Assembly: GCA_905331485.1 (NCBI GenBank)
Contig: CAJNYT010000219.1
Coordinates: forward strand, 1-49,272
Source: Rotaria socialis
Taxonomy: Eukaryota
Direction: 5' to 3'
Length of the DNA: 49,272 nucleotides
The position numbers and the translations under genes were made by a program. Below, in pieces: positions 1 through 46,031 of the stretch. Every line of letters begins with the position of its first letter. Within the stretch, counting starts at the first letter, position 1. Below the pieces are notes generated by a model, which was not told where the DNA came from, made no database searches, and worked only from the letters and a program-made list of their open reading frames with translations.

Positions 1-2164
1 TCGATATCTTTCTTATTTCTCAACTAATCGTTGAAAACGCAGAACAAAAAATGATCAGCGCAAAAATCTCTACAAGATGAAACCAATAAAACGGGATTTG
101 AAAACTTTTCTGTAAATGGTGGGAGGAAGCTGGTGGAAACACCCAGTTAGAATATAGAAAAATGCAATGATTAGAGAACAGTAAATGATTTACCATAAGG
201 ATGTAGGGGAAGATACAGAAATGTATGAAGTGCAACTAGTTCAAGTGGCTTTTTGTAACAGATGTTTTCAAAAAGAAAACTGCCAAATTTATTGATTTCT
301 TCGACTTGAAAAGCTAGTAGTTGTTGTACGTAACATTTGACTTTGTACATTTTACAGACAAAAGCACACGTTTTACCATCATAAAGAATCCATCGAATTT
401 TACCAATTATTGGTAGATTTGGAAATTTTTCTTTTGACACATTCAAGACTGTGCTTTGTGAATATTTATGACCACCAATAATTGCTTATATCAGCATATA
501 TCAGTTTCATTTTATAAATATATCTATGAAAAGAATCCACTCGAATATAAAGACATTGTCTATATATCTAATCATTTTAAAGGATGTCGGATATAAAAGA
601 ACAAAATTAAATATAAGCAGCTTTTGTTAAATTATTTATTAAATGCCAAGATTTATTTTTCTGATCGATAGAATGTATCACTTTTCGTTGATACGACATT
701 TAATGATATTTTTCACTCATCAATATGCCCGAACGATAATGTGAATGAAGAAGCATTCATTATTTCGTCTGATACAGATATGTTGATGAGAAACAGTTAT
801 CAAGAAGAGACGAATGCACACTGTTTCAATGCGGTACCACCGGAATCATCTATCTTTGAAAAAGATAAGATAACTGACAATTGCGAAGATCCTAATAGTG
901 AATGTACTGTCGATGAAGATTCATTTTTATTATCAATTGCTCGTTTCATATCATCACCTATGTTTTTAAATGATACAGACAGGTTGAGTGATGGATTGAA
1001 TAGCACAAATACTGATAAACCGAAATTGAGGCGTTCTAGAAAGTTTAATTCGCGATCTTATTACTATAAGCGGAAGGTTAGTTGTCACTTCAATCAATAA
1101 AACACATGTAACCATATTGATTTCATTAGATTACAAATGATATTCGAAGAAGATTATCAACATTATCTCATCGTAGCCAATCGGGCGCTGGAAGTCGTGG
1201 TTCAGCATGTCGTGAAGATGCTTAAAAATCACCGATAGATGAACTAATTACTTGGGTTACAGAACAAGTACAAGATAAACTTATTTCTTTGAATGAAATC
1301 AAAGACAAGTTAAGAAGTATTATATGTACCCATCACCAGAAAAAACTAGATGATATACAATTGAGAAGTGATTGGGTACAGCGACAGGTGCAAAAGTATT
1401 CGCCTGAGAAGTTTTGGTTCGGCAAGATTGCTAAGCGTCTTGGAACATATATTGGTCTAAATAACATCAATGATCATTTACAAAATAGTTTGTCATCGTC
1501 CTTTTCTTAGAATTTATCGCAATACAATTTTACGGCTACTACTGAACAAGATGATTTAATACAAAGTAACGGAAAGAAACAATTGTCTAGCACTATTTAC
1601 AGCAGTTACCACGTTGCGTGAGCAAATTCGAGAGAATAATCATCTGATTCAAGTCTTCCATAAAGAACCTGAGAATATTACTAATATGACGTCTGGCTTA
1701 TTGAATAGTCTTATTCCAATGTTGTTGAGAAATTTTATTGGTATGTTAACAGCAAGCAATCGCAAGTTTTCTAAAATAAAAAGTGAATATGTGTAAGATA
1801 CATATATATTCAAGCCATTACACTAAATATGAATATGTTGTTTTCTATTTTTAGATATTTAGATACATTTGATATTGATTTGTTTCGTTGTAGTGAAGAC
1901 TGGCTCAAAAATACTTCTATTTGCTATGACATCATTAATATTCAAAAGTACTGGTAGATAATACTAACTAAATACTTTACATACCCTCGACTCATGATTA
2001 AGTCAAGCGAATTCTTTTTTATTCTAATCGGATAGAGCCGATTACTGACTATTCAATCGACTGATACTACAAGATAATCATCTAGTATCTGAATTGATCT
2101 TATTCATGAAATGTGGCAAGCAGCACCAGTCACCAAAAATTGTCACAATGTCTTCTTTGATTCA

Positions 2165-2770: not shown

Positions 2771-3560
2771 TTAGATATAATTATTTTCTGTAACATAAAG
2801 TTAGACAAGTAAGTAATCATTCATAAGCAGTAACAAATTGTTTTCATGACACACTTGCCAAAAAAGTCCATAGTGGTCCATAGAGTATGATTAAAAAGAA
2901 TAAGTAAATGAGCATTAATTGAATACATGGATATCGACTATTATCTAGATGTGATACATATCGGATGATGCATAAAGAATTATTCCTGTTGTGTTTTTGG
3001 TATTTTTCCTGTATTATCCTGTTAAGTCAAAATTTCTTTTAATCAAAGATAACACTTGCAATTCTACAAAAAATTAAGTAGCCTATTTAATTAATATATA
3101 TATAGCTTCTTCCATTTTACTGGATTCACATCAATTGTACAGTTAGATCGAATATAAAATGTAAATTTCTTATTTTTCTCTTTTTCTCACGACAGACTAT
3201 ATTTCGTCTACCGATGTTGCCGTTGTGATAGCATGATCTCAATAGATAGCTTCAATCAATTAATTCTAGGGTATGCGTGTCGGTGTAGATGTTATTTAGT
3301 TATTTTTGCACAATCACACCCACACCCTCAAGAAGTTAAGAAAAAGATGTTTAATAATTTCTAAGTTTTGCTCGTCAAAGCTTTGCTCGCATGTTGAATG
3401 TTCTTCTTAACTTTAATGATTGCGTGATGATTGTCTTCAAATGTTTTGTGGTAAATAAGCAAAGCTTTTAAAAAACAATGGAAGGTTTGCGGATAGTTTC
3501 CAGTTGAAAAATGAATACTTCCTGTATTGTTGTAAATAAAATCAATAACAGGGCCTTGAG

Positions 3561-3620
3561 GGTGTGGGGTGTACATATATTTATCACCTATAAATACACA
3601 TCCACACCCACACCCACACC
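3561..3620. repeat. Inverted telomeric-repeat module: (TGTGGG)n - 22-bp filler - (CCCACA)n
   Basis: gggtgtggggtgt ... tccacacccacacccacacc; a smaller cacacccacaccc tract lies at 3315-3327. Confidence 0.85.
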
Positions 3621-4279
3621 AACGATAAAAAAGGATATATAACTGTATAAATTTATCAAACAAGACTCGATGTAATACCATTTGTGTCTGAAACTGTTTT
3701 TACTTTTTTCAGAGAGCTCATATTCTAACCAAGTTTACCATTGTAAATGGTAATTAGCAACAAAGTTTAATAAGGTTATGCCATACATGGTTTTACTCAT
3801 CGATTCAAATAGTTCTCTCTCTCTCTCAAGTTAGATTAGGAAGTTCTTCTGATTAGAATTTGACTTTCTGCGTCGATTTGTACAAGCAGATTTTTCTATA
3901 GCACATAATTAGTTTCAAGTAGTACCGTTTGATCGCTCTTGGGTGTTCCTGTATTAATGGTTTTGAGCGGAACACAAATCAACATTCACATCTACAACCC
4001 ATTCGAAATATTTACAAGCCCTGTTGTTTTTTTTTGTGAAGTTTATAATAGAGGTCAATAACGACGAAAACATCACACACACAATCTTGTTTATTTAAAT
4101 CTTAATAATGTAGATTCTGGTGGGGGTTCTTTTCACGCATACCCTCCCCCCCCCCCACTAAACCCTAAATTTCTGTCTCCCCGTCTCTCTCTCTCTCTCT
4201 GTGTTGTCGATAAATCAATATGTAGTCTTGTTTTTAACAGTAGCATCCAGTCAAAACTAGTGTGATAGTATTTCGGTGA

Positions 4280-5362: not shown

Positions 5363-6863
5363 CTGAATGCGTACCTAAAGTTGAACAAATATACATCATA
5401 TCATATAACAACAGCTATAGTGTTATTATGTGTGTACAATTGTTCTAAATAACAACGTATGATACAATACGAATGAATTCAAGTCGTAACCATTTTTCAT
5501 TATACAAAGCATTGATTGAGAGCTCTCATGTTAGTCATTTAAAAGTATCCAATTTAAAAAATAATGGTCTAAGATGATTACAAGGTAACTAAACAGATCT
5601 ATGTTTTTCTATAGGTTTCATAGGGCCTATTAGGATCTGCTAGAATCAAGCAGAGTCTAAAGGCTCGATTAAACTTCATAGAATCAACTAGCGCCCTCAT
5701 TATATGGATTCTATCTGAGGCTTTCGTGATCCCCTCACCCTAGAGATAATATATGTTGTCTTCTCTTCCATCCTCGTTCTGAAGAGTATTACAGACTCTA
5801 GCAAACCCTGTTAGATCCTGGGGGGGGGGACTATTATGACTTATTACATAAATTATATAGAATAGAATTGTTATGGAGTTTATTTGTGCCATTCAGTGAA
5901 AACCAATCTAGAAGCTAATCCCATACGTCACAGCCATCTCATCAGTTTTAATCCAAACAGAAATAAAGCTAAGACGACGAATAATATGAAAACCACAAAG
6001 CTATTTGCATGTAAATATATTACTTTAGAAGCAGTCTCGCGCTTCCCATCTCTACTATGTTTAAAATTATGATATCATCTTTCCGCTGAAAGTTGTTTTG
6101 CAGATTTTTATTGATGCATTTCAAGCAAAAGAAACATTTTTTTTAAAAAGGAATACAAACTGGGTACTATGAAAAGAAAAGTAATCCTACATTTTCTTGT
6201 TATTTCTCGTAAATTCGTTTTGATAACTAGTGTTTTGTCTTCACCTAGCTTGTATCTTTGCTAGACGTTGACATACCTCTTCGTTTGTTCTTTCGGTAGG
6301 AAGCACCTTTATATATATATATAAGTCGATATCTTGGAAATTTTCAGTATATCTACAAAACAAGGGAAAAAATCATGGCTATAATATGGATGGTATTGGC
6401 CAGCCCAGTGCTGGATCAATGTTTATTTATTTTATTTCTTTATGTCACTCTCATCATAATCAATTAGGTATCCGTATCACCAATATCAGTAACTTTATTT
6501 TTATATTTAATTAGACGGGCAATTTTCTTACTCATCGCATTTACCTATTCTTTTTCTTCTTCTCCATTAATAGACAAATATACTATATGTCTTTTACTTT
6601 TACTGACCGAAAACACAACACATGTAACATATGTTATTCGATGTCTATACAGATAATGAGGATAGAAATGCAAAAAAAAGAGAAAGAATTGGGGAATATA
6701 TGCTATCAATTGGGACACTTTCTCTTCTTTTCTCTAGTATATGTGTCTATTAATGGAGAACAAGAAAAATAATAGGTAAATACGATGAGTAAGAAAGTTG
6801 CACCATCATATTAAATAAGAACAAGAAAATTACTGATATAAGCGATACGGACATTTTATCACT

Positions 6864-6958
6864 GGGCGTGGGTGTGGGTGTGTGGATGAAGCAGAGAATA
6901 TGCAACACCCACACCCACACCCACACCCACACCCACACCCACACCCACACCCACACCC
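6864..6958. repeat. Inverted telomeric-repeat module with the longest C-strand tract, about 9 x CCCACA
   Basis: gggcgtgggtgtgggtgtgtgg - 19 bp filler - (cacccaca) for about 54 bp. Confidence 0.9.
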
Positions 6959-10688: not shown

Positions 10689-11451
10689 TTTTTATTCGTT
10701 CGTAGGCAGAAAATCTGAAATTGTAGTCAAACTATAAAAGTAATACTAACATCGGATTAACTATAAAAATTTTGTGCTAATGATTCGAACAGAAACTCTT
10801 CTAATCGTCGTCCTTCTTCTATCTTAAGAAATTAAAAGACAAAAAGACCGCTTGATAACAGATAAAGAAGAATATTAAAATAAATAGAAGGATGTTTTCA
10901 TATTATCTAATCATTGCTGCTAGATCCTAATAGATATATTTGGCATTTGAATAGATAATTTTAACTTGTGTTCAATATCATATAACACTGTTGTATGGAA
11001 AAAATTTTTATTGCCAACGAAAAATCGTCAACCCACTTGTTTGAACAAGAATTTAAATATTTCAATTTTTTATTGTAGTGTTTTTTATGGGTCACCCTGT
11101 ATATAAACGAAACGAAAAGAAAAATGTAATATGAATCATTACTAACAACAAGAGACATGAAGAGAAACTCAAGGACACGCATATATAGTGAAATCTATAA
11201 TAAAGAAAGTACCAATAGTCTCCTCTGAACACAGTACAGATCATAACTATCTAATATAGATGAATAAATTATGAATATATCAGTGGCTGGCATGTGTAAG
11301 ATTTGCATAACTTGATGCAACCTAATTCACATATTCTTCAGTTCTATCTGAGTCGATTGAATGTAAAAGCTTTTCAGAATAAAGTAAAAATCATGCCAAC
11401 TTTAAAAAATTATTTCCTATGTAATGTTAACTGGCTGTCTCTTGTTTCAGC

Positions 11452-11508
11452 GGATGTGGATGTGTGTGCGCTATCTTTAACCCAGCCTACGCCCACACCC
11501 ACACACCC
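11452..11508. repeat. Degenerate inverted telomeric-repeat module
   Basis: ggatgtggatgtgtgtgcg ... cgcccacacccacacaccc. Confidence 0.6.
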
Positions 11509-11542
11509 TTATGATACTTGACGTCTCTTATTGATCCTTGTA

Positions 11543-12551
11543 TTAGAGATCTGAGCTACGTAAACTCCAGAGTTTAATTATCCATTTGTTTGCGATTTCA
11601 TCAAAGTGGCACGATGTTACCTTAGCAGGAAAACCATCGAAAATCAAAAGTTCTTGTTCATCCGGATAATTTGAATATGGGGACATATCCAGAGAGCCGG
11701 TATCTTTTTCGAGGTCAATGACAAAAAGAAAGTTGCTGCCAAAGAATTCGGCCACGTTCGGATTAAGAGTAGTTGAGGTAAACGCCGGTAATTGGATTTT
11801 TCTTTCAGAGACAACGCATAGTCGAAATTGTTCAATTTGTTCGTTAGTCATCGTTGCTCCTCGATATACTATCATATTAGTGGGAGTAAAATTCATAGCT
11901 GAATTCAATAGTACAGCAAATGGGCCGTTTGGCCATCCATTCACCTTCTCGTTGCTTCCCCACCTTTTTCGCTTCGATTATAAATCCTTCCGCTGCCTTT
12001 TCTATCCACATCTCAAGTACTGACTGACAAGTGATACCTTTCTCCCAACCAACGCCGTAATGAGAACAAGCTTCTTGAACAAAATCAGGAGTTGTTGGTT
12101 CAATTTGCCAGTTTATGAAACTGTTCGAAGGCAAAACTGAATCTTCCAAGAAACGTTCCGCTCTTACTCGTTTCTCTCGTTCATCCTTGTTACGATCAAC
12201 TATACGTTTCACTGGCCGTTGTTTCTTTTCGTCATTATTAGAGATTTGCATAGAACGTGCAAAAACGATATGATAGTCGTCGAGAAGAGCTTCTGGTAAG
12301 CCTTGTTGGAATGCTTCTTCGATGATTTCAGTTTCTACATCGGTGTATTTTCGCCATTCAGCAGGTTCTGCAAAACAGAAAGGAAGCGCATTAGATTGCC
12401 ACAGCCACTCTATATACTGCTTGGCAATCAATGCAGTAGTAGTCATATACGCAACGACCAAACGGTAGCAGTAAAGATTAGATGTGATAGTAAAAAGAAA
12501 GAAAATGAAAGATATATTTCGTTTCATTATTGACTCTTTTTGTTGTTCCAT
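11543..12551 (-). CDS. Secreted R-S-E clade mono-ADP-ribosyltransferase (arginine-specific type), two exons (12551..~11945 and ~11898..11543), ~320 aa
   Basis: The 224-aa ORF has a signal-peptide-like N-terminus (MKRNISFIFFLFTITSNLYC) and the helical N-domain. The 133-aa ORF carries the catalytic triad: 'VYRG' (R), 'FTSTT' (S-T-T) and 'DEQELLIFDG' ([Q/E]-x-E). The two ORFs overlap in different frames. A 46-nt segment with a GTGAAT donor and a TTCAG acceptor removes the overlap and joins the frames exactly (...KQRE-A-MNFTPTNMIVYRG...). The second ORF's 'M' is GTG, which is consistent with it being internal to an exon. Confidence 0.75.
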
Positions 12552-12797
12552 TCTGTGGCTGGAAGAAAGAAAAAAAAGAAAGGAAATGAAAGGAAATGAA
12601 AGGAAAGAAAAGAAGGAGACAATGTTGGTTAACTTCTGTTATGACACGTCTATAAGCTGTGTCATAAGATGAAAGGTATCACCCAAATATCTTGAGGATG
12701 TGTATAGTAAACAGAGACGTGCACAGGATATAATTTTTTCTCCTGCTCTTGCCTGTCCTGTTACCTACCTTGGTTCTGGTGGGCGGCAGGACAGGAG

Positions 12798-12867
12798 AGG
12801 GTGTGGGTGTGGGGTGTGTAGAGGTGGATGTGTGAGGTGATGCTTCTCTTCACTCACACTCACACCC
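12798..12867. repeat. Inverted telomeric-repeat module
   Basis: gggtgtgggtgtggggtgtgtagaggtggatgtgtgaggtg ... cactcacactcacaccc. Confidence 0.8.
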
Positions 12868-13387
12868 TAAAAATGGAAAGAAAACAAAAACGTATGACGA
12901 AAAAGCAGTAGGTCTCATTAAGTTTTGAGTCTCGATATATCTATAACAAAGGTTGAAGAGGAGCTGGCCATGCAATTTTGGCAGAGAAAAATTTGCTGTA
13001 TCAAACGAAATATTATTCAAAAAGGTTCTGATAGCTTACTACAAAAAACATAACTAAATACTAACTTAACCAATTTTCTATAAAAAAAAGTCGTTTTATT
13101 GAACTGTTGAGTGCGCATTGTTTTTTATTTTGCCATAACTGACGACCTGTAGATCCTTACATGTTGAGGGCGTATTCAATGCGTACTTCATAACATTTTA
13201 GCAGTGACCTAGAGTAAGCTAAATATTTGGATTTGTAGGTTTTTTTATCTTGCTCTTTCATTTCCTATCACAAAGTATAGCGTCTAAAATTTTTGGAAGT
13301 GCGATCCTGTGAAAAAAGATTCGATTTTCTCACGGAGCGTCTCTGAATTCACACTATTAAAATTCAGTATTTAGCGGGTGACTAAGG

Positions 13388-13510
13388 ATGTGGGGAGTGT
13401 GGTGTGGGTGTGGGTGGGTGTGGGTGTGAGTGTGTGTGAATCGCCAAACAAAACACCTATAGGGCACCCACACCAGCACCAACTCACGCCCATACACCAA
13501 CACCCACACC
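13388..13510. repeat. Inverted telomeric-repeat module (long and degenerate), abutting a TIR element
   Basis: G-strand 13388-13438 (gtgggtgtgggtgggtgtgggtgtgagtgtgtgtg), C-strand 13466-13510 (cacccacaccagcacc...cacccacacc). Confidence 0.8.
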
Positions 13511-13516
13511 AGAGAC

Positions 13517-14460
13517 CGTCACAGGGCAGGGCAAAAGTTTTTGCCCTGCGCCCTGATAATTTTTCCTATAAACTGATATACAGCATATTTTTCAGTAGAT
13601 TATGCTGACATGGTGATGGATTATAATGTATGTCATTATGCGCCAGTCACTGTGAAATTTGTTACTATGTCTAGTTCGGACAATACCAGTTTACTCATTT
13701 ATTATCATATAATTCAATTATAAAAATAAAATACTGCTTCTAAGAGAAATGCAAAACATGGTAGAATCATTTAATATTGTATAAGAGAACGAGCTAATTT
13801 AAGAATTATGTGTATGATGAGCTTTTTTTCTAAATGATTTCAGACATGAGCTTAGTATTCCAGAGGAAATTTCACTTGAAGATTCAACATGTTCTAATGG
13901 TAACTTTCTTCGCATGTTTTAGTTTTGTATGCTTAGTTCTCTATGTTTTAAATTATTTTCACTTGATATGAACTCGCCCGGTTTTACAAAATTAGAAGAT
14001 CTCTTATTTCATGATAAATCTTACCGCCCCATAATACACAATGAATCTCTTGCTACTGGTACATTTTGAAGAGTCTTTATTTACCCAGCACGATGAGTTG
14101 AGGAGAATACATGTGAAAGATTTACTTGATTTCTCACTTATTCAAATTATGTACATATTCAATCGCCAGATCACGATAAGCGCATTATTTTTGCAGTGAA
14201 CTGATTTTTGTGATAATCTTAATTGCTGTTTGCTACTCATACTTAATTATGTTTTCAGCGCATATCTATATTTTCTCGAATATAGATAAATAAAAATACG
14301 AGTACTTTACTTTTCAGCGGTTACAACATTTTCATTTAGTCTTTACCTTTTTCAATATTTCAGTTCAATTTATAATCACGCCCTGTCCTGCCCTGAGACA
14401 GGGCAGGATATAGCAGGGCGCAGGGCAGGACAGGGCAAAAAGTTGCCCTGTGACGATCTC
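13517..14460. mobile_element. TIR-bounded element (~940 bp) with GC-rich palindromic termini (CGTCACAGGGCA...GCCCTGCGCCCTG), flanked on both sides by telomeric repeats
   Basis: Left 'cgtcacagggcagggcaaaagtttttgccctgcgccctg' (13521-13559); the reverse complement of the right end (14395-14458) is 'cgtcacagggcaactttttgccctgtcctgccctgcgccctg'. No ORF. Confidence 0.6.
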
Positions 14461-14475
14461 TGATCCACACCCAGC

Positions 14476-14545
14476 TTTTGTTAAATTATTTATTAAATGC
14501 CAAGATTTATTTTTTCTGATCGATAGAATGGTATTTGTGTATTGA
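14476..14545. repeat. Dispersed ~70-bp repeat; second copy at 619-690
   Basis: 'gcttttgttaaattatttattaaatgccaagatttatttt(t)ctgatcgatagaatg' at both sites. At 14475 the homology starts exactly after a CACACCCA telomeric tract. Confidence 0.75.
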
Positions 14546-17500
14546 ATGAGAAGGGAAATGAAAATTTTTCACTTCTATAAAAACATAGTTGTAAAATATT
14601 TTAACAGTTAAAATAAATATTAAATTCGATTTTACTCATCAATTAATTGAAATTAATAGTTTAGAAAAATCTATTCTATTATGAGCAGAAATTATCAAAG
14701 GTTAAATGAATTTACATAGTACAGAACAAAAATATATGAATCGTTACTATTGCGATGTAATCGAACAAATGCTTCGAGTGCTAGAGGCATCATTATATAT
14801 TGAACTATGTAGAAGTTTATTAATAATAATCTATGAAACTCATTTAGTCTCGGAATATTATCTTCGTAGACATTGAAATTTTGTAAAAATACAATTTTAG
14901 TTTTAGTTTTCTATCATTTGAAATAGGAAATGACTTTTATTGTAATTAAGAAAGCAGTAAAATATCTTATCATCGAAGTCATCCATGATATCTAAGTGAA
15001 ATTATTAGAGATAATCAAGTTGATTTGTTCCGAATTTCATTTCAACACGTTTTGTATTCGTTTTCAATTGTATTTAATAACTGATAAACATGGTCAAGTA
15101 TTATTCAAATATGAATAATTCTGTTGTATTTAAACATAAAGATTTCGATTGAACATACGAAGAGAAACTTTCATTGCTAATGAAAAATATTGAATAATCA
15201 TTGAGACATTTGAACGACTTGTCTTCGCTTTTAAGAATGACGCCAAAATATAAACCTATTTTAATTAGTTCGACACACAGCTATTTAGTCACGCTCGATT
15301 AAATATATATAATTATTTACTTGTAAACAAATTATTTTTTAAAAAATAATTGTATATTTAAATGGCAAATATATTTACAAAAAAAAGTGTTGCTTGAAGT
15401 TCACTGTGATAATGGTTGTGGTTTACTTGTCAATGAAAATTGTCGAGAAAATCTTTTGTTTTTTTTCTTTATTGAATAATCTTTCTCTTCATTTTTGTTA
15501 ATTAGTCAATACATTTATTAAATTATATTCGAACTCATTATTATTTGTCATCATCAATAAAAAATGGATTTATGTTTAATAAATAGTGGAGAACCATTGC
15601 ATCTTTCATCATCTGATACAAAAATTATTTCATCAGGAAGATATTGTTTTCCGTCTCTTTTTCATTGAAGATCTGGATGCATGATATTCACCTCACACAT
15701 TCTACTCTTGTCTTAGTGCATGGGAAAAGACACATATATTTTTGTTGAACAGAAATCTTATTTTCAATCTTTTTTATTTGCTTAGTTTAACAGCTTTGGT
15801 GTGAATGAGAGATGAGCACAATATGCTCTCCCATCCACACGTTTGCCTTCGAGCTATTTTTAATTATTTGTCTCTAGAATAATGATAAAATTGTTAAACT
15901 TGAAAAAAAATCATTCATAAATATGAAATATCTAATAACTTATCAATATATATTCGAGTTTTATGATAGCACATCAATATGCGTATAAAATTCTCCATAG
16001 GTGCACACTTATCAATAAGGAAATGGATGATCTTAACCATTCTATCGTTTCTAGTACTATAATGGGCCACTTCTACAGTTCGATATATCAAAAATTAATA
16101 GATTACATCTACATTGAAAATATCTGGTAAATAGTTTCATCGGATTAATTCACCTATATATTTCTTTTTTTCTATAAGGAATCTTTTTGTTAACATAATT
16201 GATTATCAATGATCGGCTATCATTTAGACGATGTCCGTCAAGCATTGTATAAGTATACGTCTATTCTATTATCCGATAGACACATTATATCGACAATGAA
16301 TTCTTTATCAGGTATGAGTATGTGTAGCTCTTTGATAATATCATTTATTTGTATTATTCTTCTGTACAGAAGACTCCATGCAGCTGGTCGATTTACTTGA
16401 TGAGTTAATTTTAATTATCATGTACAAAGTGAAACCTAAAGTGTTATTGCTTTGTTCTACTATCACTATTGATAATAATCGTTTAGCAAAACTTGCACTT
16501 GATATGTATCATTCAATTGATTTAACTTTTAAGTATTTTCAATCACCATATCAATTTATTATTCCACGTTTTTACACACATTTTATGCCTTGTATCATTA
16601 ATAATATTCAACTTACACATTAGGTAAACTATGATTAACTATCGCTTTAGTTCATTTTCTACTTATAAAATAAGATAAATTCTTATTTTTTCAGAATTAA
16701 AAAAAAAGAACTCTACTTTAAATATAGAAGATTCAAGTGGCTTTTTAGGAACATTTAAGCAGAAAAGATGTGAGACTTTTTTAAGTATTCATTGCGATAA
16801 AAACTTTATGATCAAAATTGTGTTCCTTAAAAATCTTATATTTCGATCATAATACATTTAAAAAGAAGGAACCATTAGATGATATGCTAGTCTACTAGCC
16901 TCCTATCTCTGACCAGAATATGAGCTTTAAACATTATAATAACCTGGTTGATTCTTCTTCTCCTTAGATATTCCTAAAAAACAACTCGAATCTTCTGTAT
17001 TTCGAGTGGAAGTCGACAAAAACCTTTTCCAAAAAAATGGTTGAATACCGATGATTTTACCCTTCTGATAAAATCTATACTTAGGAAAACATTGATATTT
17101 GTATATATTATTAGGCAATAACCTTTACTGTGTTTCGCGGTGTTTTACTCTCTTCTCAAATATACCTCAATTTTCTGTACGTACTGGATAAGAGCAATAC
17201 TGCTCGCACTTGATCTAAATTCTTTTGTTCACTATCTGTGTCTTCTATTGTATCTTTCGAATTGGATGATGATTGTATTTTAAAAAATATATTTTAAAAT
17301 GGCGATGATTTAATTTTTCCTGAATCAATCCATCTGACTCTTATTCGAATAATATTATTTGAATTCGAACGTTGCATTTTTTTACTTAATCAATTGGGCT
17401 CATAATTATGTTCATTCGTTGTAAGTGTGTGGTGTTTGTTTCTGCATCAGATGTTGGTATTTTTTCTAAAATTAAATCAGTAAGCAATATTTAGTAATTG

Positions 17501-18720: not shown

Positions 18721-18889
18721 GAGAATTATTTTTTTCTAAAAGAAAATAACTCAGTTAAATTACACGGCTGATAAGTATCGGACACTCAGGATACTTTAAT
18801 AAATAGACTGCAGATAGATTTTTGATGTATTTTAACTTTGTATCTGTGTGATACACTTACATATTGTATTGTTCTCTTAGAACGGTTCT

Positions 18890-19480
18890 CAATAGCATAT
18901 GAGCGCATGCGGTAAGTCTTTTTCCTGAAAAACTCTTCCACTCATTCTCTGCAAATGGCACTTGTACTTTTCCGCGGCACAATCAAACACATCATTTAGT
19001 ACGAGCAATGTCGTAATCAGTTTTCCTTCCCGTTTCGCCATATTTCAGTCCATGAGCATCGCGAAAAATAAAGTACGCTGAAGGATGGACTAGTAGACGT
19101 TTTGATTGTAAACGATCAGTATTATTCATGTATAGAAAACGATTTTAGAGAATATTAATTATGCTGAATATTTACTTATAAACAATCAAAAGCACAACGA
19201 AACCTTGTCAAACCGTTTTCTATACATGAATAATACTGATCGTTTACAATCAAAACGTATAATAGTCCATCCTTCAGCGTACTCTATTTTTCGCGATGCT
19301 CATCGACTGAAATATGGTGAAACTGGAAGGAAAACGGATTCCGACATTGAAACATGTAAATGGAATAATATGTTTTTGAACGCTGCTCGTGCTAAATGAT
19401 GCGTTTGATTGTGCCACTGAAAACTACAAGCGTCAATTGCAGAGAATGAGTCGAAGAGTTTTTCAGAAAAAAGGCTTACC
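18890..19480. repeat. ~590-bp foldback palindrome (arms ~255 bp, loop 19142-19212)
   Basis: 19041-19141 is the reverse complement of 19213-19312 with near-perfect identity. The outer arms still match ('agagaatgagtggaagagtttttcaggaaaaag' at 18925 versus 19441). The ORFs 19205..19399 and 19300..19482 are mirror-image artefacts. Confidence 0.8.
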
Positions 19481-20126
19481 ATATACGCTCATATGCTGCT
19501 GAGAAGCATGCAAAATACAAGGAGGCCTATTATTTTTGTCTGTCCATTATAAGAGTGATTTATAAGCAGCTACGTAAAGAACATGATATATTTTTTCACC
19601 TTAGGCAAATATTAGTTTTGGCTCATGACGCGAACTTTCGAAATGTTTTATTAATATTTCACAATACGTATTTTTGATGACGTCATTACTCTGAATAACA
19701 GATGAGATATGTTTTAATCACAGTCAAGTTATTAGAATTTTCAACGTTGTTTTAACAAAAAATACGTCTAAGTGATATAGGTAAAGTTAGCACCAAATTC
19801 GGTTATTTTTTGTCCGGATTAGCTCAAGAACGTGCGTTCGATGTAAAATTAAATTCTACGTCGAATTGCATTATTTTCAATAGTGGTCATCGAGCAAGAA
19901 AAGGGGCTCAGGATGAAATACTAGAGTTCGGGTGCACGATACCATAATCTTGATAGGCATTATTGAAGTTGGTCAAAAGATTTCAATCGCCACATAGGGT
20001 TGGACCGTTTGTTAGCTATAATATGTATAGAATGAAAGAAAGATATAAGGAATGAAAGAGGGATATATAGAGAGTGAAAGAGACAAGCAGTGTCACTGAT
20101 GTTATGTGACAGAACGAAGAAAAATA

Positions 20127-20198
20127 TGACCTTCATGGAGATCGAACCCATACCTTCTGCTATCCAGGCAGATGTCCTACCAGTTAGACTAGAAGAAC
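20127..20198 (-). tRNA. tRNA-like Pol III element (72 nt cloverleaf with A and B boxes); aberrant anticodon loop, so a tRNA pseudogene or SINE head is possible
   Basis: Minus strand: acceptor GTTCTTC/GAAGGTC (one mismatch), D-arm GTCT-AACTGGTA-GGAC, anticodon stem TCTGC/GCAGA with loop CTGGATA (anticodon GGA, but position 37 is T), T-arm ATGGG-TTCGATC-TCCAT, discriminator A, then a T5 terminator. Confidence 0.35.
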
Positions 20199-21252: not shown

Positions 21253-21304
21253 GGATGTGGGTGTAAGCAATCTTTGTATTAACAATCCCACTCACACCCA
21301 CACT
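21253..21304. repeat. Inverted telomeric-repeat module; isolated G-tracts also lie at 20771-20790 and 20941-20958
   Basis: gatgtgggtgta ... cactcacacccacac. Confidence 0.6.
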
Positions 21305-23098: not shown

Positions 23099-23162
23099 TG
23101 TGTGTGGGTGTGGGTATGGGCTGATCATGAGTCAGATAGGCACCTGCACCCACACCCACCCT
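23099..23162. repeat. Inverted telomeric-repeat module
   Basis: gtgtgtgggtgtgggtatggg - filler - cacccacacccaccc. Confidence 0.8.
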
Positions 23163-24862: not shown

Positions 24863-24954
24863 GGGTGTGGGTGTGAGATGTGGGCGGGCATAATTTTGAT
24901 TGTGCGTACATGAGACAATAGAATAATATTCATACCCACAACCACACCCACACC
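24863..24954. repeat. Inverted telomeric-repeat module (58-bp filler)
   Basis: gggtgtgggtgtgagatgtgggcggg ... catacccacaaccacacccacacc. Confidence 0.8.
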
Positions 24955-25437
24955 GATTTAACCATAAACTCGCTGATGGAATTAGTTAGGCATTCTTTTT
25001 TGAAATTATATTTATTTCAAAGCAAATTTTGAAATTATTATTTTGTTGTCAGGTAGGACGATTATTGAAACTCTAGAGTTAAGACTAACAGATTGATTTA
25101 TATGAAAGACATACGGATAGGAATTCACTAGTACAGTCGGACTGGTACACCCACCTTCAATCTCATCCCCAGTCTGACCCTTCGAGTGGGGAACCCAAAA
25201 CGGTCCCGTTCCGGATGGGACTGAATTCGGAACCAAAAAATAATTTTTTGTGGAACCGGGACTAAATACTTTTTTAGTCAGTCCCGAGCAAATTTTTTAA
25301 AGAAAAAAAATCGTCTATAGTACTTGGTTCTTTTATTTTCAAGAAGTAATTTCACTATTTTCCCTTTCATATATTTTATAATACAAGAAAATCTTCACAA
25401 ATAAATATTCAAAATTTTAAAACAACACGATAAACTT

Positions 25438-25495
25438 GAGGGTGTGGGTGTAGACTGAATTAAAAACAGCGTATCCACATCGACACCCACACCCA
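25438..25495. repeat. Inverted telomeric-repeat module
   Basis: gagggtgtgggtgta ... cgacacccacaccc. Confidence 0.8.
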
Positions 25496-25832
25496 AAATA
25501 GAAGTGTGTTTCAGAAAATCGGGACCTGGACTGAAAAAAATTAGTCGGGCTTGGGATGGGATCGGGACCAAAAAGGGTGGTCCCTCATTTCCCTACCTTC
25601 CAGAGATAAGGCTTTATTTTGAAACTAGTTTTTGTATGCAAACTCACATGTTGTAAAATGTTTTTTTTTATTCTGTGCGATGATAATATTAGGAAAAATA
25701 GATAAGAGAAATTGCGTTGTACAGAATGAAATAAGCACAACGGAAAAATTATTTATTTTAATATTTGATATTCAACACAAGAAGACAGGCAAAAATACAT
25801 TATATTTTAACGAAAATTCATTTTAGGAGTTC

Positions 25833-27722: not shown

Positions 27723-27778
27723 GGGGTGTGTGGTGTGGGTGTGGATATGATCCAGACTGGAAAATTCACCCACACCCA
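27723..27778. repeat. Inverted telomeric-repeat module immediately 3' of the ART-TPR gene
   Basis: ggggtgtgtggtgtgggtgtgg - 22 bp filler - cacccacaccc. Confidence 0.85.
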
Positions 27779-28478
27779 TAAATGGTAAACAAAGGAACCT
27801 ATAAAAACAGAACGTATACACATCAGCAGTCTACTTGTTGGCCAATAGCAGAAGAAAAGCAACGAATTTCTGTCTGGCAGATTATTACGTGTAACAGGCT
27901 AATTAATAAGAAAATAATGCGTCTTCAATTTTAAATTTTGTTTCCTTTTACTTCTTAAGAGATGGCATTTTGTTTATTTAAAACTGTAGGATAAGCTAGT
28001 GTTGCTTATGACTAAGAAACATACTATCAATTTACCAGAAAAATGAGACCTACTCAAATACAAAAGTACCAATAAATTTAAGTGTCAATGCTGGATGTGG
28101 GCGTAAGTGTTAGTAAAATTCCTGATTGCCATCAGGTGGAATATTGTATGATTGATATTTTTCTTATGCAAACTTTTAAAAGTCTAATATTTTGAGTGTA
28201 TAAGTAACTCGATTATGACTACATGGTCATAAAATCTGTGAGTATTCGTGGATGTTTGCATACTTTACACAAGGCGGTGGTAGCTAACAATTTAACCTTG
28301 TTAGTTTGGCAGTGAAAATTTTCATTTGATCCGAATATATACGATCCCTTTTATTGACGGCACAGTCGATATTTCGATTTTCAAAGCGATCAAACTATAC
28401 CATATCCGTGACATGTCAAATCTAATAGGAGACAATTCAATAAAAAATATCTCTGAAAAAATCTTGACAAGGTAAATG

Positions 28479-30061
28479 TTATTCTGCTAGTTCTGCTTCT
28501 ATAAGACGAACACAATGACTAAGTCCATCTTCATTTTTAATTAATTCGCTAATCTTTTTAGCACTGGTTTTATAAATGTTATAATTGTCAATCATAAGAT
28601 CACGAATTGCATTAGTTAAATTCTTCACATTGGTGTGACGTATGGAAATAGATCTTGGTCCTAATCTATTGATAAATATTCGATCACCGTTAAATGGTTG
28701 ATCGGCTCCAAAAGATAATACTAATGTAGGCAATCCATACCAAAGACTTGCATGTGTAGTACCGGCACCACCATGATGAATTGTTGCTGACATATAAATA
28801 AATAACCAAGAATGTGGAATGGCATGTGTCAAATAAAATATATTATCAGCTGTGGATAACGTACTGGCATCTGCGCTTTTAAATCCAACTAATGACATAA
28901 CTGCTTTACAATTATTTCTATCAAGAGCCAATAAAATTTTGCGTATAAATTCCATTTGTTCATCTGCTCCAAACATGGTACCCATCATTGATCCAAGACC
29001 AACATAGATAATCTTCTCGTTTTTCCATTTGGTCAAGAAGTCAAGAATAGGAGTTGGCGGTTGAAAATTCTCATTTTCTTTTTCAAGTATTGGACCGACC
29101 ATATGATCATTTTCGTGCCAATCGGATGGACATGGTATTAAATATTTGGAATAGATCGTTGCAGATACCAATGGCTTACGAAACAGGGATTGAGTCATAC
29201 GTTCATAATTTAATTTCATTGGTGGTAAATCATTAGTGGCACGAAGTTCATTGAGTTTATCATTATAGATGCTTGACATAGCATAGTCGACTATTTTCCA
29301 TTTCAATAAATTGGTCCACTTGAACAAACTACCACTTTTCCCACCTAAACCAGGCGGCGAAAAATGAACTGTTCGTATCACTGGGAATGTGTAGATTCCA
29401 ATTGCTTTAATATTAGGAAATTTCTCAATACAACTTAATCCAGGGAAAATAGATGCAACTGTTAGAACAATTAAATCAGCGTCTTTTACACCAGACAGAA
29501 TTCCATTAAACCATTCTTCAATCGCTGGTTGAAATATACGTTTTACTAATCCCATTTTTAAAATACTTGGATTCCGTCGGAGCTCGATTCCTTCTGGGCT
29601 TGTCGATAAAAAATGTTCTAGGTCACCACCGATTTCAACTACATCGAAACCTGAATAAACAAATAGAAGGTGATATCATGGAAATATTAATGAAAGAACT
29701 CTTCAATATTAGATTTAGATTTATATTGTGCGATGATACAATGATAATATGGGAAAGTATCAAGCGATTGTTGGATTTAAGATTGATAGTACTTACCAGC
29801 AGCTTTTACTATGTCTTGATAACGTCGATGTACACCAAGCCATACGATATGTCCACGTTTTTTAAGTTCTTCGGCAAGTATCATAAAAGGTTTCACATCT
29901 CCTAGAGTGCCAGTCGCCGGAATAAAAATCTTTTTAACTCTAGTATTCTTGCTACTGTCATTAATTTCTTTGGCAATCGAGCTTTCTTCCTGGCTTTCCA
30001 AGTCCATGAGATGTGAATCTTCACTTATATTTCTAAAATTGAAATCAATAATGTGTTTCAT
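28479..30061 (-). CDS. GT1-family UDP-glycosyltransferase (sterol 3-beta-glucosyltransferase / macrolide-GT type), two exons (30061..29797 and 29650..28479), ~480 aa
   Basis: Exon 1 'KKIFIPATGTLGDVKPFMILAEELKKRGHIVWLGVHRRYQDIVKAAG' is the GT-B N-terminal signature. Exon 2 carries 'HHGGAGTT' and 'GLPTLVLSFGADQPFNGDRI' (C-terminal UDP-sugar motif). A GTAAGT donor at 29796 and a TTATTCAG acceptor at 29651 give a 146-nt intron. That joins the frames exactly: ...VKAAG|FDVVEIGGDLEHF..., matching the UGT51-type 'GLEFFPIGGDP'. There is no GRAM/PH N-terminus. The track start at 30079 is TTG; the first ATG is at 30061. Confidence 0.8.
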
Positions 30062-33000
30062 ATAGAAATATAATCGCAAGAGACAGAATAATCAAATGTT
30101 ATATGTTGTAGATCGGATGACATGAATCGTTAACTCCTAAGTACATAATAGAAAAACAACGGTCCATCATCCTATTGGCTAAAAACAATTGAAATAAATA
30201 AGGCAAATACATTATCACCACAAAAGCTTAAAGTATAATGTTGACAAGAAGAAAAACTATCATGTCACAATTGCAATAAAGATAAGAACGATTCATAAAA
30301 CAAAAACATGCTTTTACACGACGTATAAAGTTGTGCTATAAAAAAAGCATACATTTAATTACATAGTTGCTGCTTTCATGTATCTATGTTGTCACTGACG
30401 GCAAATCTCTATCGAATAATAAATAAGATTTTCATTATTTAAGTCACCAGCAAACATAAAGTCTATATTACATGAATGAATATACATGTTTTCATGCATA
30501 ATATCATACAATTCTAACGTTTTCTTTGTTATACTAGTTATATAGCGTGTGATTCTTATCTTTAGCACAAGCGTTTTTGAAAAAAGAGAACAGAAACGAA
30601 GTGCAACACTCGAAAATGTATTAAATTTCGTTCATTTCGAAGTACTTTTAAAATAAGATAAAGAACGAAGTTTACTCTAAAAAGAATTTTTCTTTTTTAA
30701 AATACTTATTTCTACAATACGCAGCATGCAGCGGCGGAGCCAGGGAAGGACTAGGGGGATTGAGCCCCCTTGCTAAATTTTTGAAGGATGAATTTTTTCT
30801 ATAAAAAGATGTATAAGTCTTTGTAATTGAATATTTGAATGCTTTAGTTATTGGGTGAAGCTCGTAGTTGTTTCGGAAGAAAATAAAATACCGTAATTCT
30901 AATTTCCAATCAAGTTTTAAAGGTTATAATCTATCCTTACAACACATAACTAATGATTGAAAGATTTGAGGGTACGGTTTTGTTTATTGCCACTCAACTA
31001 GTTAGAAGGCATCTCAGACGAGTCGAAAGTTATTCTATGGCTAAAGCTTTGCGCTTTTTCGAAGATGATCTTATAAATGTTATGTATATTTTTATTCAAA
31101 TATAGTGAAGGACTTAGTGCAGAGCGTAAAAAGTTACTTTCAATGATGCGCGAACATTTTTTTGTTTGAACTGTAAGCTACGTTACGAAGATGTTAAGAG
31201 TTGTCGTAGTCCGTGATTTTCTTGAGCGGATACTTCCCGACAAAAAGGGGGATATTGATTTAAACTAGTTTTAACTCAATTAATTCTACACGCATTTATT
31301 AGGAGCTCCTCTTAACGTAAAATGATTTTGTTGAAAAGTCAATTTTTCAGAAATGAGTTTTGAGAAGAACAAAAGCTGAGATGTCTCAGCGAAAGCTAAA
31401 AAACTTCATGTAGTACATATTTTAGGGTATTTTAGGTTCTGCAAGCTGATTTATAGGGCAAGATAAGAAGTTTTCGATTTGAGTTGTAAAGCAAAATACA
31501 AAAATGAACGGAAGAAGTTTCCATCTTCACCTATTTGTTTGCTTTTCTGAAGAATATTTCACTGATTACTTTCGAAGAAAAACTGAATTCTAGGTCAATT
31601 TCCAAAACAGGTACCAAATTTTGATAGTAACTAATAATAGTTTTGAGCAAGTCGAAAATACTTTCTGTCAAGTTGAACGCGAAAAAACATTTTGCTTGAA
31701 AGCTTTCCGACCGCGCACGAATAAACTTTTGGATTAGTCAAAAAGACATTTTTCAAAAATCTCTTCAGATATGAGTAATAGTCGGCGAACAGCAACAGTC
31801 AAGTTATAAAAACTTTTTGAGTTTTTGCTGATTATTTTTTTCTCTTTTCGGAATTAGGAACATGCATCAATTTGATGCAGTTTTGTTGCACTATCAGATA
31901 TAATAATAGTAAAAAGTTTTGTAACTCATTCTAATGAAAAAATCAAAGTACTTAGAAAAAATTTGTCGTACGACACAATGTATCTATAAACGTTTCCAGG
32001 CGAGAATTAAAAAAAAACGCAGCAAACACCTGGTGATTGAAACAGACTTGTGAAACCAACGGTTATCACCATTATTCATATCGCACATTTAACAATGTAT
32101 TATTTCAAACAACGCAACTATACCAAACTGACAGAGAAGACAAACACAGGATGAGAGAGAAAGCACATACATACTAAAACACAGCCAATCCACACACCCC
32201 AGAAAATGACGCACACAAAAATATAGCTAATGATTCAAGACAAAATTATATCTCATAAAACATCTTCCCAGCAAAATAAAGCGTAAGAGCTCAAACTTTC
32301 CATTCAAACAAGCAACAATCATTCCAAATATTCAGATCTTGAAATGTACCAACTGCAACGACCACCGAGACTTATGAGTACTTCCAGTTACATTAACAGC
32401 ATTGATCCTATACGGGTTATGTCTTAATTTAAAATATGATCAACTCCATCTATGTATTCAATAGGAAAATTCAATCATTTACTGATATACTTGCTTCAAG
32501 AACTTTTCAAGGAGAACTATTATAGGTGCTATCTGCTGGGGCCACTACTGGTAGTTGTCGTCTGAACTTATATTTATCGATTTAGATAACGTGATGAATG
32601 AAAAGCATGAAAACCTATCAATTTCGTTGTTTAATAGGCAATTTTAGCAAAATAACATAAAATATCTTCGAATTCTAAGGAACTCCGTGGAACTTCAAGG
32701 AGTTGGAGTCTGCCGTTTTCTCCTTTGTTTAACGGGCAGAGCTGTCTCAATTTTTCAGAATTTCTACCTTAGCACTGTCACTTATTTAGCAAATTAAAAT
32801 TGTTTTTGAAAACCTTCTATTTTCATGATTTAGAACAATTAGCGACGAGGTTCATAATAAAATGCATTAACGTTGAGCTTCATGAAGTATGAAATTTTCC
32901 ATGGTATACCGACTATTTCAGCAGCTTGTGCAATAACTCAACGTGCAGAACTGAAAGGAAATATATGAACAACATTTGCCTACTCCTTGTTTTTTTCTCT

Positions 33001-39968: not shown

Positions 39969-41675
<1,707 letters not shown>

Positions 41676-42479: not shown

Positions 42480-42740
42480 TCAAAAGCGCTTTGGTCCATG
42501 ACTTTTGAAAAGTTATACCCCTTTTAGTGAATTTTTGACCTATTCCTAGGTATGCACTAAAAAGATAAAATTAAGCAATTTCGATCTGAAACTTTGCCCT
42601 CGGATTAGTCTAAGAACCCTTAGAATATCGTGAAAGTTTCAGATCGAACTTGCTTAATTTGATTTTTTTAATAAATATCTAGGAATAGGTCAAAAAATGC
42701 AGTGAAAGGACCATAAATTTTGAAGAAAGAGCCATGGGTC
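42480..42740. repeat. ~260-bp foldback / MITE-like palindrome
   Basis: 'gacctattcctaggtatgcactaaaaagataaaattaagcaatttcgatctgaaactttgccc' versus its reverse complement at 42633-42700. The outer 'ggtccatgacttttgaaaag...' arms are also mirrored. Confidence 0.7.
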
Positions 42741-45835: not shown

Positions 45836-46031
45836 CCACAAAACACGTGTCCATTTTTATTTAACATTGAACAAATCAAAGTGAATTGATTTTTTCCAAT
45901 CTTTGCAATTTATATCCTACTCTCTTTATGTTGCCACAAAACACGTGTCCATTTTTATTTAACATTGAACAAATCAAAGTGAATTGATTTTTTCCAATCT
46001 TTGCAATTTATATCCTACTCTCTTTATGTTG
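45836..46031. repeat. Perfect tandem duplication, 2 x 98 bp
   Basis: 'ccacaaaacacgtgtccatttttatttaacattgaacaaatcaaagtgaattgattttttccaatctttgcaatttatatcctactctctttatgttg' occurs twice, head to tail, with no mismatch seen. Confidence 0.85.

Follow-up and report, generated by a model that had tools for sequence, protein, structure and literature searches.

A truncated repeat at a telomeric tract, and head-to-head telomeric modules, in a stretch of Rotaria socialis DNA

How does a truncated repeat come to abut a telomeric tract within a contig, with a second telomeric tract of opposite orientation and a transposon close by? We asked this of a 49,272-nt stretch from the bdelloid rotifer Rotaria socialis (contig CAJNYT010000219.1 of assembly GCA_905331485.1; the whole stretch is called the window hereafter), which is AT-rich (~33% GC) and in which the boundary in question lies at position 14472. 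Among the proteins encoded in the window, the WWE-ART protein (275 aa) is 100% identical to a Rotaria socialis protein entry and the TPR protein (624 aa) has an identical copy in six NCBI Rotaria assemblies. (TGTGGG)n is the telomeric repeat in bdelloids (PMC7943196, PMC8494291), and because the hexamer is thus the host's own telomeric repeat, the tracts in the window are genuinely telomeric; the whole window has 40 occurrences of ACACCCACACCC with no more than one mismatch, where 0.03 are expected. The account that we consider probable is a healed break, followed by head-to-head joining, decay and then insertion of a transposon. The locus itself is a clean but unsurprising case of known bdelloid biology; the notable part is the regular head-to-head architecture to which it belongs.

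The truncated repeat and the transposon at 14472

The features around the boundary, with the strand where one applies, are:

483–675 (+): copy A of a repeat unit of at least 415 bp, 3'-truncated at 675 and without a telomeric tract; its overlap with copy B is 618–675
13386–13438 (+): G-strand tract, degenerate (TGTGGG)n, 53 nt, the left arm of module M6 (Tandem Repeats Finder period 6, 82% matches)
13439–13463: spacer of M6, 25 bp, non-telomeric, AATCGCCAAACAAAACACCTATAGG, without a templated source nearby beyond chance
13464–13509 (+): C-strand tract, degenerate (CCCACA)n, the right arm of M6, ending in the left 8-bp copy of a target-site duplication (TSD)
13510–14462: non-autonomous hAT-like element of 953 bp with terminal inverted repeats (TIRs) at 13510–13529 and 14443–14462
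14463–14473 (+): remainder of the C-tract, ATCCACACCCA; 14463–14470 is the right TSD copy, and the CA at 14472–14473 is common to tract and repeat
14472–14727 (+): copy B of the repeat unit, 5'-truncated exactly at the C-tract; 95% identical to L010 6211–6466

A third copy, copy C, occupies positions 6053–6466 of L010, a locus from another R. socialis assembly, and in a three-way alignment it runs uninterrupted past the point at which copy B is truncated. Its left part matches window 483–617 (84% over the whole 479–678 match), its middle is a stretch of 58 bp held by all three copies, its right part matches 14472–14727 at 95%, and it carries no telomeric tract. The right boundary of the unit is uncertain, because a MULE-type transposon follows copy C in L010. 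Within the window, 618–675 equals 14472–14530 at 58 of 59 positions with one T indel (BLAST E = 3e-22), and the two sequences diverge after 675/14530; this match exists because A and B, two differently truncated copies of one unit, overlap. A sequence-only reading of this DNA had proposed a ~70-bp repeat (14476–14545 with 619–690), which is real but was drawn ~12–15 bp too long, and had placed the start of homology at 14475, at the end of the tract; the start at a tract edge stands, but it lies at 14472, with the CA common to both. What that reading took for a duplicated segment at the breakpoint is the 58-bp overlap of the two truncated copies, the third copy being free of telomeric sequence.

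Copy B is cut exactly at the inner end of the C-tract, while L010 6053–6466 and window 483–675 both extend upstream of that point. On the top strand the junction reads ...ACACCCACAC/CCA and then GCTTTTG, and the C-strand runs 5' to 3' into the retained DNA, a geometry that is identical at all 12 modules described below. What lies to the left of M6 shows no relation to the portion of the repeat missing from copy B. Since exact truncation at the tract, the orientation of the tract and a copy C that continues through the same point together constitute the signature of chromosome healing, the comparison supports the view that the 14472 boundary behaves as a break healed through telomere addition, presumably by telomerase.

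The C-strand sequences on either side of the element, 13464–13509 and 14463–14473, form a single tract that the transposon has split. The element opens at 13510 with CAGAGACCGTCACAGGGCA and closes at 14462 with inverted CAGAGATCGTCACAGGGCA; its termini, CAGAGAYCGTCACAGGGCA, match at 19 of 20 positions in a TIR alignment, both ends then have a CAGGGCAA..TTGCCCTG palindrome, and GC-rich subterminal CAGGGCA/TGCCCTG repeats lie inside. The TSD copies, ACCCACAC (13502–13509) and ATCCACAC (14463–14470), agree at 7 of 8 positions, and the right copy conforms to nTnnnnAn, which we take to be the hAT target consensus. Removing the element together with one 8-bp copy yields a single C-tract, ...ACACCAACACCCACACCCA, leading directly into GCTTTTGTT. 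There is no open reading frame (ORF) of at least 70 aa inside the 953 bp, the sole listed ORF (13378–13608) beginning in the G-tract. Because an 8-bp duplication occurs here with CAGAG termini and without an ORF, the element looks like a non-autonomous hAT-type transposon, as judged from its termini and TSD. Like members of the hAT superfamily (hobo/Ac/Hermes type) it has an 8-bp TSD, TIRs of ~20 bp that start with CAGAG in keeping with the YARNG rule, and short subterminal repeats; unlike them it has neither a transposase nor an identified autonomous partner. It is present in all R. socialis assemblies examined, and among the loci fetched its termini were seen at this orthologous site alone.

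The element inserted into a C-tract that already existed and is not part of the junction. From sequence alone a ~940-bp element with GC-rich palindromic TIRs and a long G/C telomeric module at 13388–13510 had been described, and both are present, the module at 13386–13509 as G-tract, 25-bp spacer and C-tract; the suggestion of a junction healed by telomere addition is likewise supported for 14472 by the truncation, the tract orientation and the continuation of copy C. The element is not, however, sandwiched in that junction, being a later hAT-like insertion into one continuous C-tract with duplication of 8 bp, and what it interrupts is the tract and not the duplicated sequence; nor does anything show it to be telomere-associated, as the alternative of an insertion point for a telomere-associated element had implied.

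The history that we propose would begin with a copy of the repeat broken at the present 14472, where the truncation, the orientation of the tract and the CA overlap are seen directly; telomerase, the probable agent, would have added TGTGGG to the bottom-strand 3' end, priming on ...CTG-3', so that the top strand has CCCACA running into CAGCTTTTG. The capped end would then have been joined to another end bearing a G-strand tract (13386–13438), with the 25 bp of non-telomeric filler between them, a step to which the geometry and the other modules point. Point mutations would have accumulated in both tracts, and the hAT-like element would have entered the C-tract 11 bp from its inner end; the TIRs and the TSD of this last step are there to be read. 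The locus would on this account be a fossil chromosome end within a subtelomere-like region.

Head-to-head modules along the window

M6 is one of at least 12 equivalent modules, a fact that the sequence-only reading overlooked. Each has the order G-tract, spacer of ~16–54 bp, C-tract, and none falls within a long ORF or a single-gene model of the window:

3277–3330: M1
3557–3621: M2
6864–6958: M3, whose C-tract is a perfect (ACACCC)9
11455–11508: M4, beginning 37 bp past the stop codon of WWE-ART; kept in Rotaria magnacalcarata, with a paralogous copy at L007 7948–8003
12713–12798 (+): degenerate terminus of a hAT-like element related to the one above, CAGAGACGTGCACAGGA..., ...GGCAGGACAGG (read from the sequence), cut off by the G-tract of M5
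12799–12867: M5, G-tract, spacer with CTTCTCTT, C-tract; kept in R. magnacalcarata
13386–13509: M6, the module at the studied junction
21253–21303: M7
23100–23161: M8
24863–24955: M9
25437–25497: M10, 336 bp upstream of the TPR gene
27724–27780: M11, beginning 17 bp past the TPR stop codon
39772–39825: M12

G-then-C pairs stand against C-then-G pairs at 12 to 0 in the window and at 19 to 0 over five independent Rotaria loci, and in 20,000 shuffles, whether of tract positions or of tract labels, 12 is never reached. The module pattern reads the same as its reverse complement, and a segment lying between modules therefore always has a C-tract at its left and a G-tract at its right, as would a linear DNA fragment with a cap at either end, its telomeric repeats facing outward. 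Four of these segments hold a single gene (adenylosuccinate synthetase, PARP, WWE-ART and TPR), one holds two genes, and several of 0.3–1.8 kb have no long ORF; the spacing between modules is 0.3–12 kb. Arms are 9–124 nt long, often degenerate, and can differ greatly in length within one module (21 and 124 nt in L014; 25 and 54 nt in M3). TSDs were found at none of the 12 modules. Every module is able to fold as a hairpin, 11 of the 12 better than shuffled sequence (z −1.8 to −5.5), with base pairing confined to the telomeric arms and the spacers non-palindromic. An exact-pattern scan of metagenomes returned 52 contigs; ~25 of them, of low, bdelloid-like GC and many with moss-type names, have the module structure, with arms that sometimes exceed 100 nt. 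The contigs are too short, and too mixed with unrelated GC-rich organisms, to allow orientations to be counted without bias.

Each of the seven available comparisons shows homology breaking off where a tract has its outer edge. One is that of copies B and C, which ends at the C-tract. Another is the PARP gene of R. magnacalcarata, which is truncated at window 8078 in haplotype L014/L015 and intact in L016/L017: at L014 7019–7176 (also in L015) a near-perfect C-tract of 124 bp caps the gene, head-to-head with a G-tract beyond which lie 2.5 kb of unrelated DNA, and the break has an ACAC overlap, a match of 4–5 nt to the repeat. At M3, R. magnacalcarata has an extra fragment of ~320 bp and a second module, the fragment being a copy of window 32330–32486 that starts exactly at the C-tract; the site thereby measures ~415 bp (fragment, second module and 37 bp) versus ~40 bp in R. 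socialis. In R. socialis the (ACACCC)9 of M3 adjoins TGGTATTG, without the 37 bp found in R. magnacalcarata, apparently the outcome of recent healing and subsequent recombination with the older tract. In L007, a paralogue (96–97%) of the WWE-ART 3' half has M4's C-tract and spacer together with some of its G-tract, and similarity is lost at the outer edge of that G-tract. For R. sordida and R. sp. Silwood1, synteny (~80% identity) breaks off to the base at the R. sordida G-tract, with unrelated sequence beyond; the breakpoint module there (L079 12950–13042 versus L081 5607) has a CorA/EF-hand gene pair on one side and the CAD (CPSase) gene on the other. R. sordida, too, carries a module of the same form. 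Finally, the hAT-like terminus at 12713–12798, itself kept in R. magnacalcarata, ends at the G-tract of M5. M3, M4 and M5 occupy orthologous positions in R. magnacalcarata (~97% identical) and are therefore older than the split of the two species, whereas the PARP truncation and the R. socialis M3 joint are recent.

The spacers are non-telomeric, and the arrays neither abut directly nor meet by microhomology only. Most spacers are mutually unrelated in sequence. Copying from nearby DNA was considered as their source and rejected, the longest matches of 9–13 nt being at the level of random 25-mers. Of 51 modules drawn from several Rotaria species and from bdelloid-like environmental contigs, ~12 have a CTTCTCTT-like core immediately 3' to the G-tract (for example at 12848–12855 in M5 and at L017 8368–8395), and M5 and the second R. 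magnacalcarata M3 module are clearly alike; because of this core the modules have polarity. GAGAA/TTCTC occurs in 11 of 44 spacers versus 2 of 84 flank windows (Fisher 1.3e-4, uncorrected for the ~500 words tested). The core could reflect shared descent of some modules or templated addition, for instance read-through past the telomerase template, the latter if the telomerase RNA bases 5' of the template read AAGAGAAG.

The simplest reading of the modules is that they are joints at which two telomere-capped ends were ligated or existing tracts recombined; the repeats at the joints may have come either from de novo addition at breaks or from existing tracts able to recombine with one another.

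Several observations accompany the modules. In many tracts the outermost unit is TGAGGG (CCCTCA on the C side), often after a T, as at 3557–3562, 25437–25442 and 3325–3330, and also in L043, L055, L075, L076 and others; it may represent a proximal variant repeat or else the register at which initiation is preferred. At the truncated, capped PARP site of R. magnacalcarata, the gene model given by NCBI (945 aa) continues across the break. Distant WWE-ART paralogues (37–42% aa identity; L019, L024 and L022) in otherwise ordinary gene neighbourhoods each have modules within 0.3–3 kb, and the adjoining genes have none. The CorA neighbour, tried as a route to an "empty" orthologous locus of the WWE-ART cassette, led to matches that are paralogous loci; the breakpoint separating R. 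sordida from R. sp. Silwood1 came out of them.

Weighing the explanations

We give hardly any credence to the possibility that the assembly is at fault, with repeats having led to a chimeric join. It could draw on the two short-read contigs composing the window, one ending and the other beginning within the TIR element (13702 and 14263), and on L007 and L010, which have differing joins within that element, each bearing one N; yet three further R. socialis assemblies (L008, L009 and L011) are collinear with window 1542–22465 (L011 from 4124) at 99.5–99.9%, all three being 100% identical over 14400–15000, M6 is base-identical in six further loci, and its G-tract (13386–13438) is the same in every R. 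socialis assembly covering that stretch. The L007 and L010 rearrangements were also considered as natural structural variants and set aside, the single N at L007 8730, L010 7952 and L010 11538 pointing to scaffold joins. In the GCA_9651203xx assemblies generally, every join that differs from the window has a single N and looks like a scaffold join. A different account of the repeat would make copies A (483–675) and B (14472–14727) the halves of one copy split by the intervening 13.8 kb, the 58 bp being a long target duplication or a staggered-break fill-in. A is 3'-truncated and B 5'-truncated, and joined they would give one unit with a 58-bp overlap, inside which two states common to A and B differ from copy C; moreover, a rotifer element, R9, is reported to have very long target duplications in a reference given in PMC8557442. 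We nevertheless regard this account as improbable, in that the 13.8 kb are a mosaic of at least five module-bounded segments with three genes and not one element, the junction at 675 has neither a telomeric tract nor a TIR, no empty allele was found, and identity to copy C is only 84% for A versus 95% for B.

As for the modules, including 13386–13509, they might be functional cis elements under selection instead of repair scars: bidirectional GU-rich or G-quadruplex terminators, poly(A) downstream elements, insulators, sites for telomere-repeat-binding factors, or RNA/DNA hairpins. The position of all modules outside long ORFs and single-gene models, the hairpin folding that in 11 of the 12 exceeds shuffles, the retention of M3–M5 between two species and the proximity of modules to WWE-ART paralogues would suit such a role, as would the starts 17 and 37 bp past the TPR and WWE-ART stop codons and the fact that a transcript from either side reaches a G-rich arm first. 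Still, the nearest sense-strand G-tract of other genes is 600–700 bp from the stop codon or there is none, several module-bounded segments are gene-free, the arms vary in length (9–124 nt) and are often degenerate, an interspecies divergence of 3% is too low to prove constraint, and a regulatory motif alone does not predict that homology ends at the tract edge; we hold a purely functional origin to be unlikely, noting that a functional role is compatible with a scar origin. Less credible again is that the G-spacer-C unit is a small mobile or templated insertion into otherwise continuous DNA, such as a hairpin miniature inverted-repeat transposable element (MITE) with telomere-like TIRs or a read-through and snap-back product of telomerase or of the Athena reverse transcriptase. 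The recurrent CTTCTCTT-like core right after the G-tract, the frequency of TGAGGG/CCCTCA as the outermost unit and the fairly uniform spacer length speak for it. However, a TSD was found at none of the 12 modules, most spacers are unrelated, arms can be as unequal as in L014 and M3, and the flanks are non-contiguous wherever a comparator exists. Nor was a hammerhead or other Rfam family found: a search for hammerheads or Athena 3' ends by the C-tracts returned only a tRNA for the window at the Rfam gathering score, and a permissive hammerhead scan of 11400–14600 (E up to 5) gave only generic sub-threshold miRNA-like hairpin matches.

Several points weigh against the account by healing and head-to-head joining. 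The overlap of the broken end with the telomeric repeat is just 2 nt (CA, 14472–14473). No intact allele or orthologue of the break was found at the same locus, nor was an empty site of the transposon found in the alleles and orthologues examined; the R. magnacalcarata contigs lose collinearity at 13032. The context of copy C is unrelated to the window, so that it gives no proof of the ancestral state here; with such flanks it may be an allele, a homoeologue or a dispersed paralogue. Spacers are not predicted by simple telomere-to-telomere ligation, and the CTTCTCTT-like core hints at a templated or common origin outside what the model explains. Modules adjoin WWE-ART paralogues at four loci, among them R. 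socialis L019 (9435–9495) and L024 (8514–8567, 9396–9459 and 11267–11315) and R. sp. Silwood2 L022 (12785–12854 and 13904–13958), which could reflect selection or a dedicated mechanism and not scars.

Known systems, implications and other features

Human 2q13 is the relic of a head-to-head telomere fusion, and it resembles the modules in having inverted arrays, G-strand then C-strand, inside a chromosome and decaying by mutation. The arrays here are, in contrast, 10–125 nt and not hundreds long, are separated by an unrelated spacer of 16–54 bp, and recur every 0.3–12 kb and not once per fusion. In 2007 Gladyshev and Arkhipova reportedly described telomeric repeats at interstitial positions, and ends that had been healed, from the subtelomeres of bdelloids. 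Telomeric fosmids of A. vaga hold "short stretches of telomeric repeats" (PMC2861651), and bdelloid neotelomeres sit at deletion breakpoints (PMC13564844). The window shares with these the TGTGGG repeat, short internal tracts among transposable elements and TPR-type and foreign-looking genes, and repeats placed directly on truncated sequence; it differs in that the described tracts cap 5'-truncated Athena elements or stand isolated, with no mention of head-to-head pairing. De novo telomere addition, or chromosome healing, is reported from yeast, Plasmodium, ciliates and nematodes in works cited in PMC13564844. There as here, repeats begin at truncated unique sequence with an overlap of 2–5 nt (CA at 14472, ACAC at the PARP break), but the healed ends of the window are no longer terminal, each having been re-joined to another repeat-bearing end. 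Athena/Terminon Penelope-like retroelements attach to telomeres (PMC6431247, PMC8557442), and like the modules they have (ACACCC)n beside telomeres and form chains with host genes between units; unlike them, their attachment gives repeats of a single orientation, and no reverse-transcriptase domain was found in the 20 window ORFs scanned against Pfam, nor a hammerhead in the window. In the searchable literature, neither an obligatory head-to-head pairing across a short spacer nor the framing of single genes came to light, an earlier account being possible in the 2007 PNAS, 2008 Science and 2017 MBE papers.

Bdelloids are the textbook example both for taking up foreign genes on a massive scale and for surviving the shattering of their genome, and we know of no account of the manner in which pieces of DNA are stitched into their chromosomes. 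It is conceivable, although we are doubtful, that in Rotaria, and perhaps in all bdelloids, telomerase capping followed by head-to-head ligation is a routine way of joining DNA, with genes or fragments handled as telomere-framed cassettes. Were this so, cassettes would be accreted, shuffled, deleted and duplicated at the joints, leaving a polar signature of G-tract, spacer often starting with CTTCTCTT, and C-tract, and there would be a physical mechanism behind the mosaic regions of bdelloid genomes that are rich in foreign genes and gene families. If the joints are indeed scars of capping both ends and then ligating them, the signature could be counted genome-wide, the events could be dated and mapped, and telomerase would be tied to gene capture, gene-family expansion and structural polymorphism.

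The window has further features. Large inverted repeats, foldback- or MITE-like, lie at 18877–19514, 2170–2774, 40234–41197, 6519–6801 and 42532–42696, and the inverted repeat at 19006–19349 has the flipped orientation in assembly L002. A 98-bp unit is perfectly duplicated in tandem at 45836–46031 (copies 100% identical). A tRNA-Ser(GGA) gene (20127–20198, − strand) lies in a gene-poor stretch upstream of M7. Beyond M12 there is an EF-hand exon (39978–40337), and the NCBI model, which joins EF-hand domains to a VIT-VWA-PARP gene, may fuse two genes that a module separates. A glycosyltransferase gene (28479–30007, − strand; best Pfam match EryCIII-like_C, with Glyco_transf_28 on the NCBI model) shares its module-bounded segment with a vault-type PARP gene and was possibly acquired horizontally.

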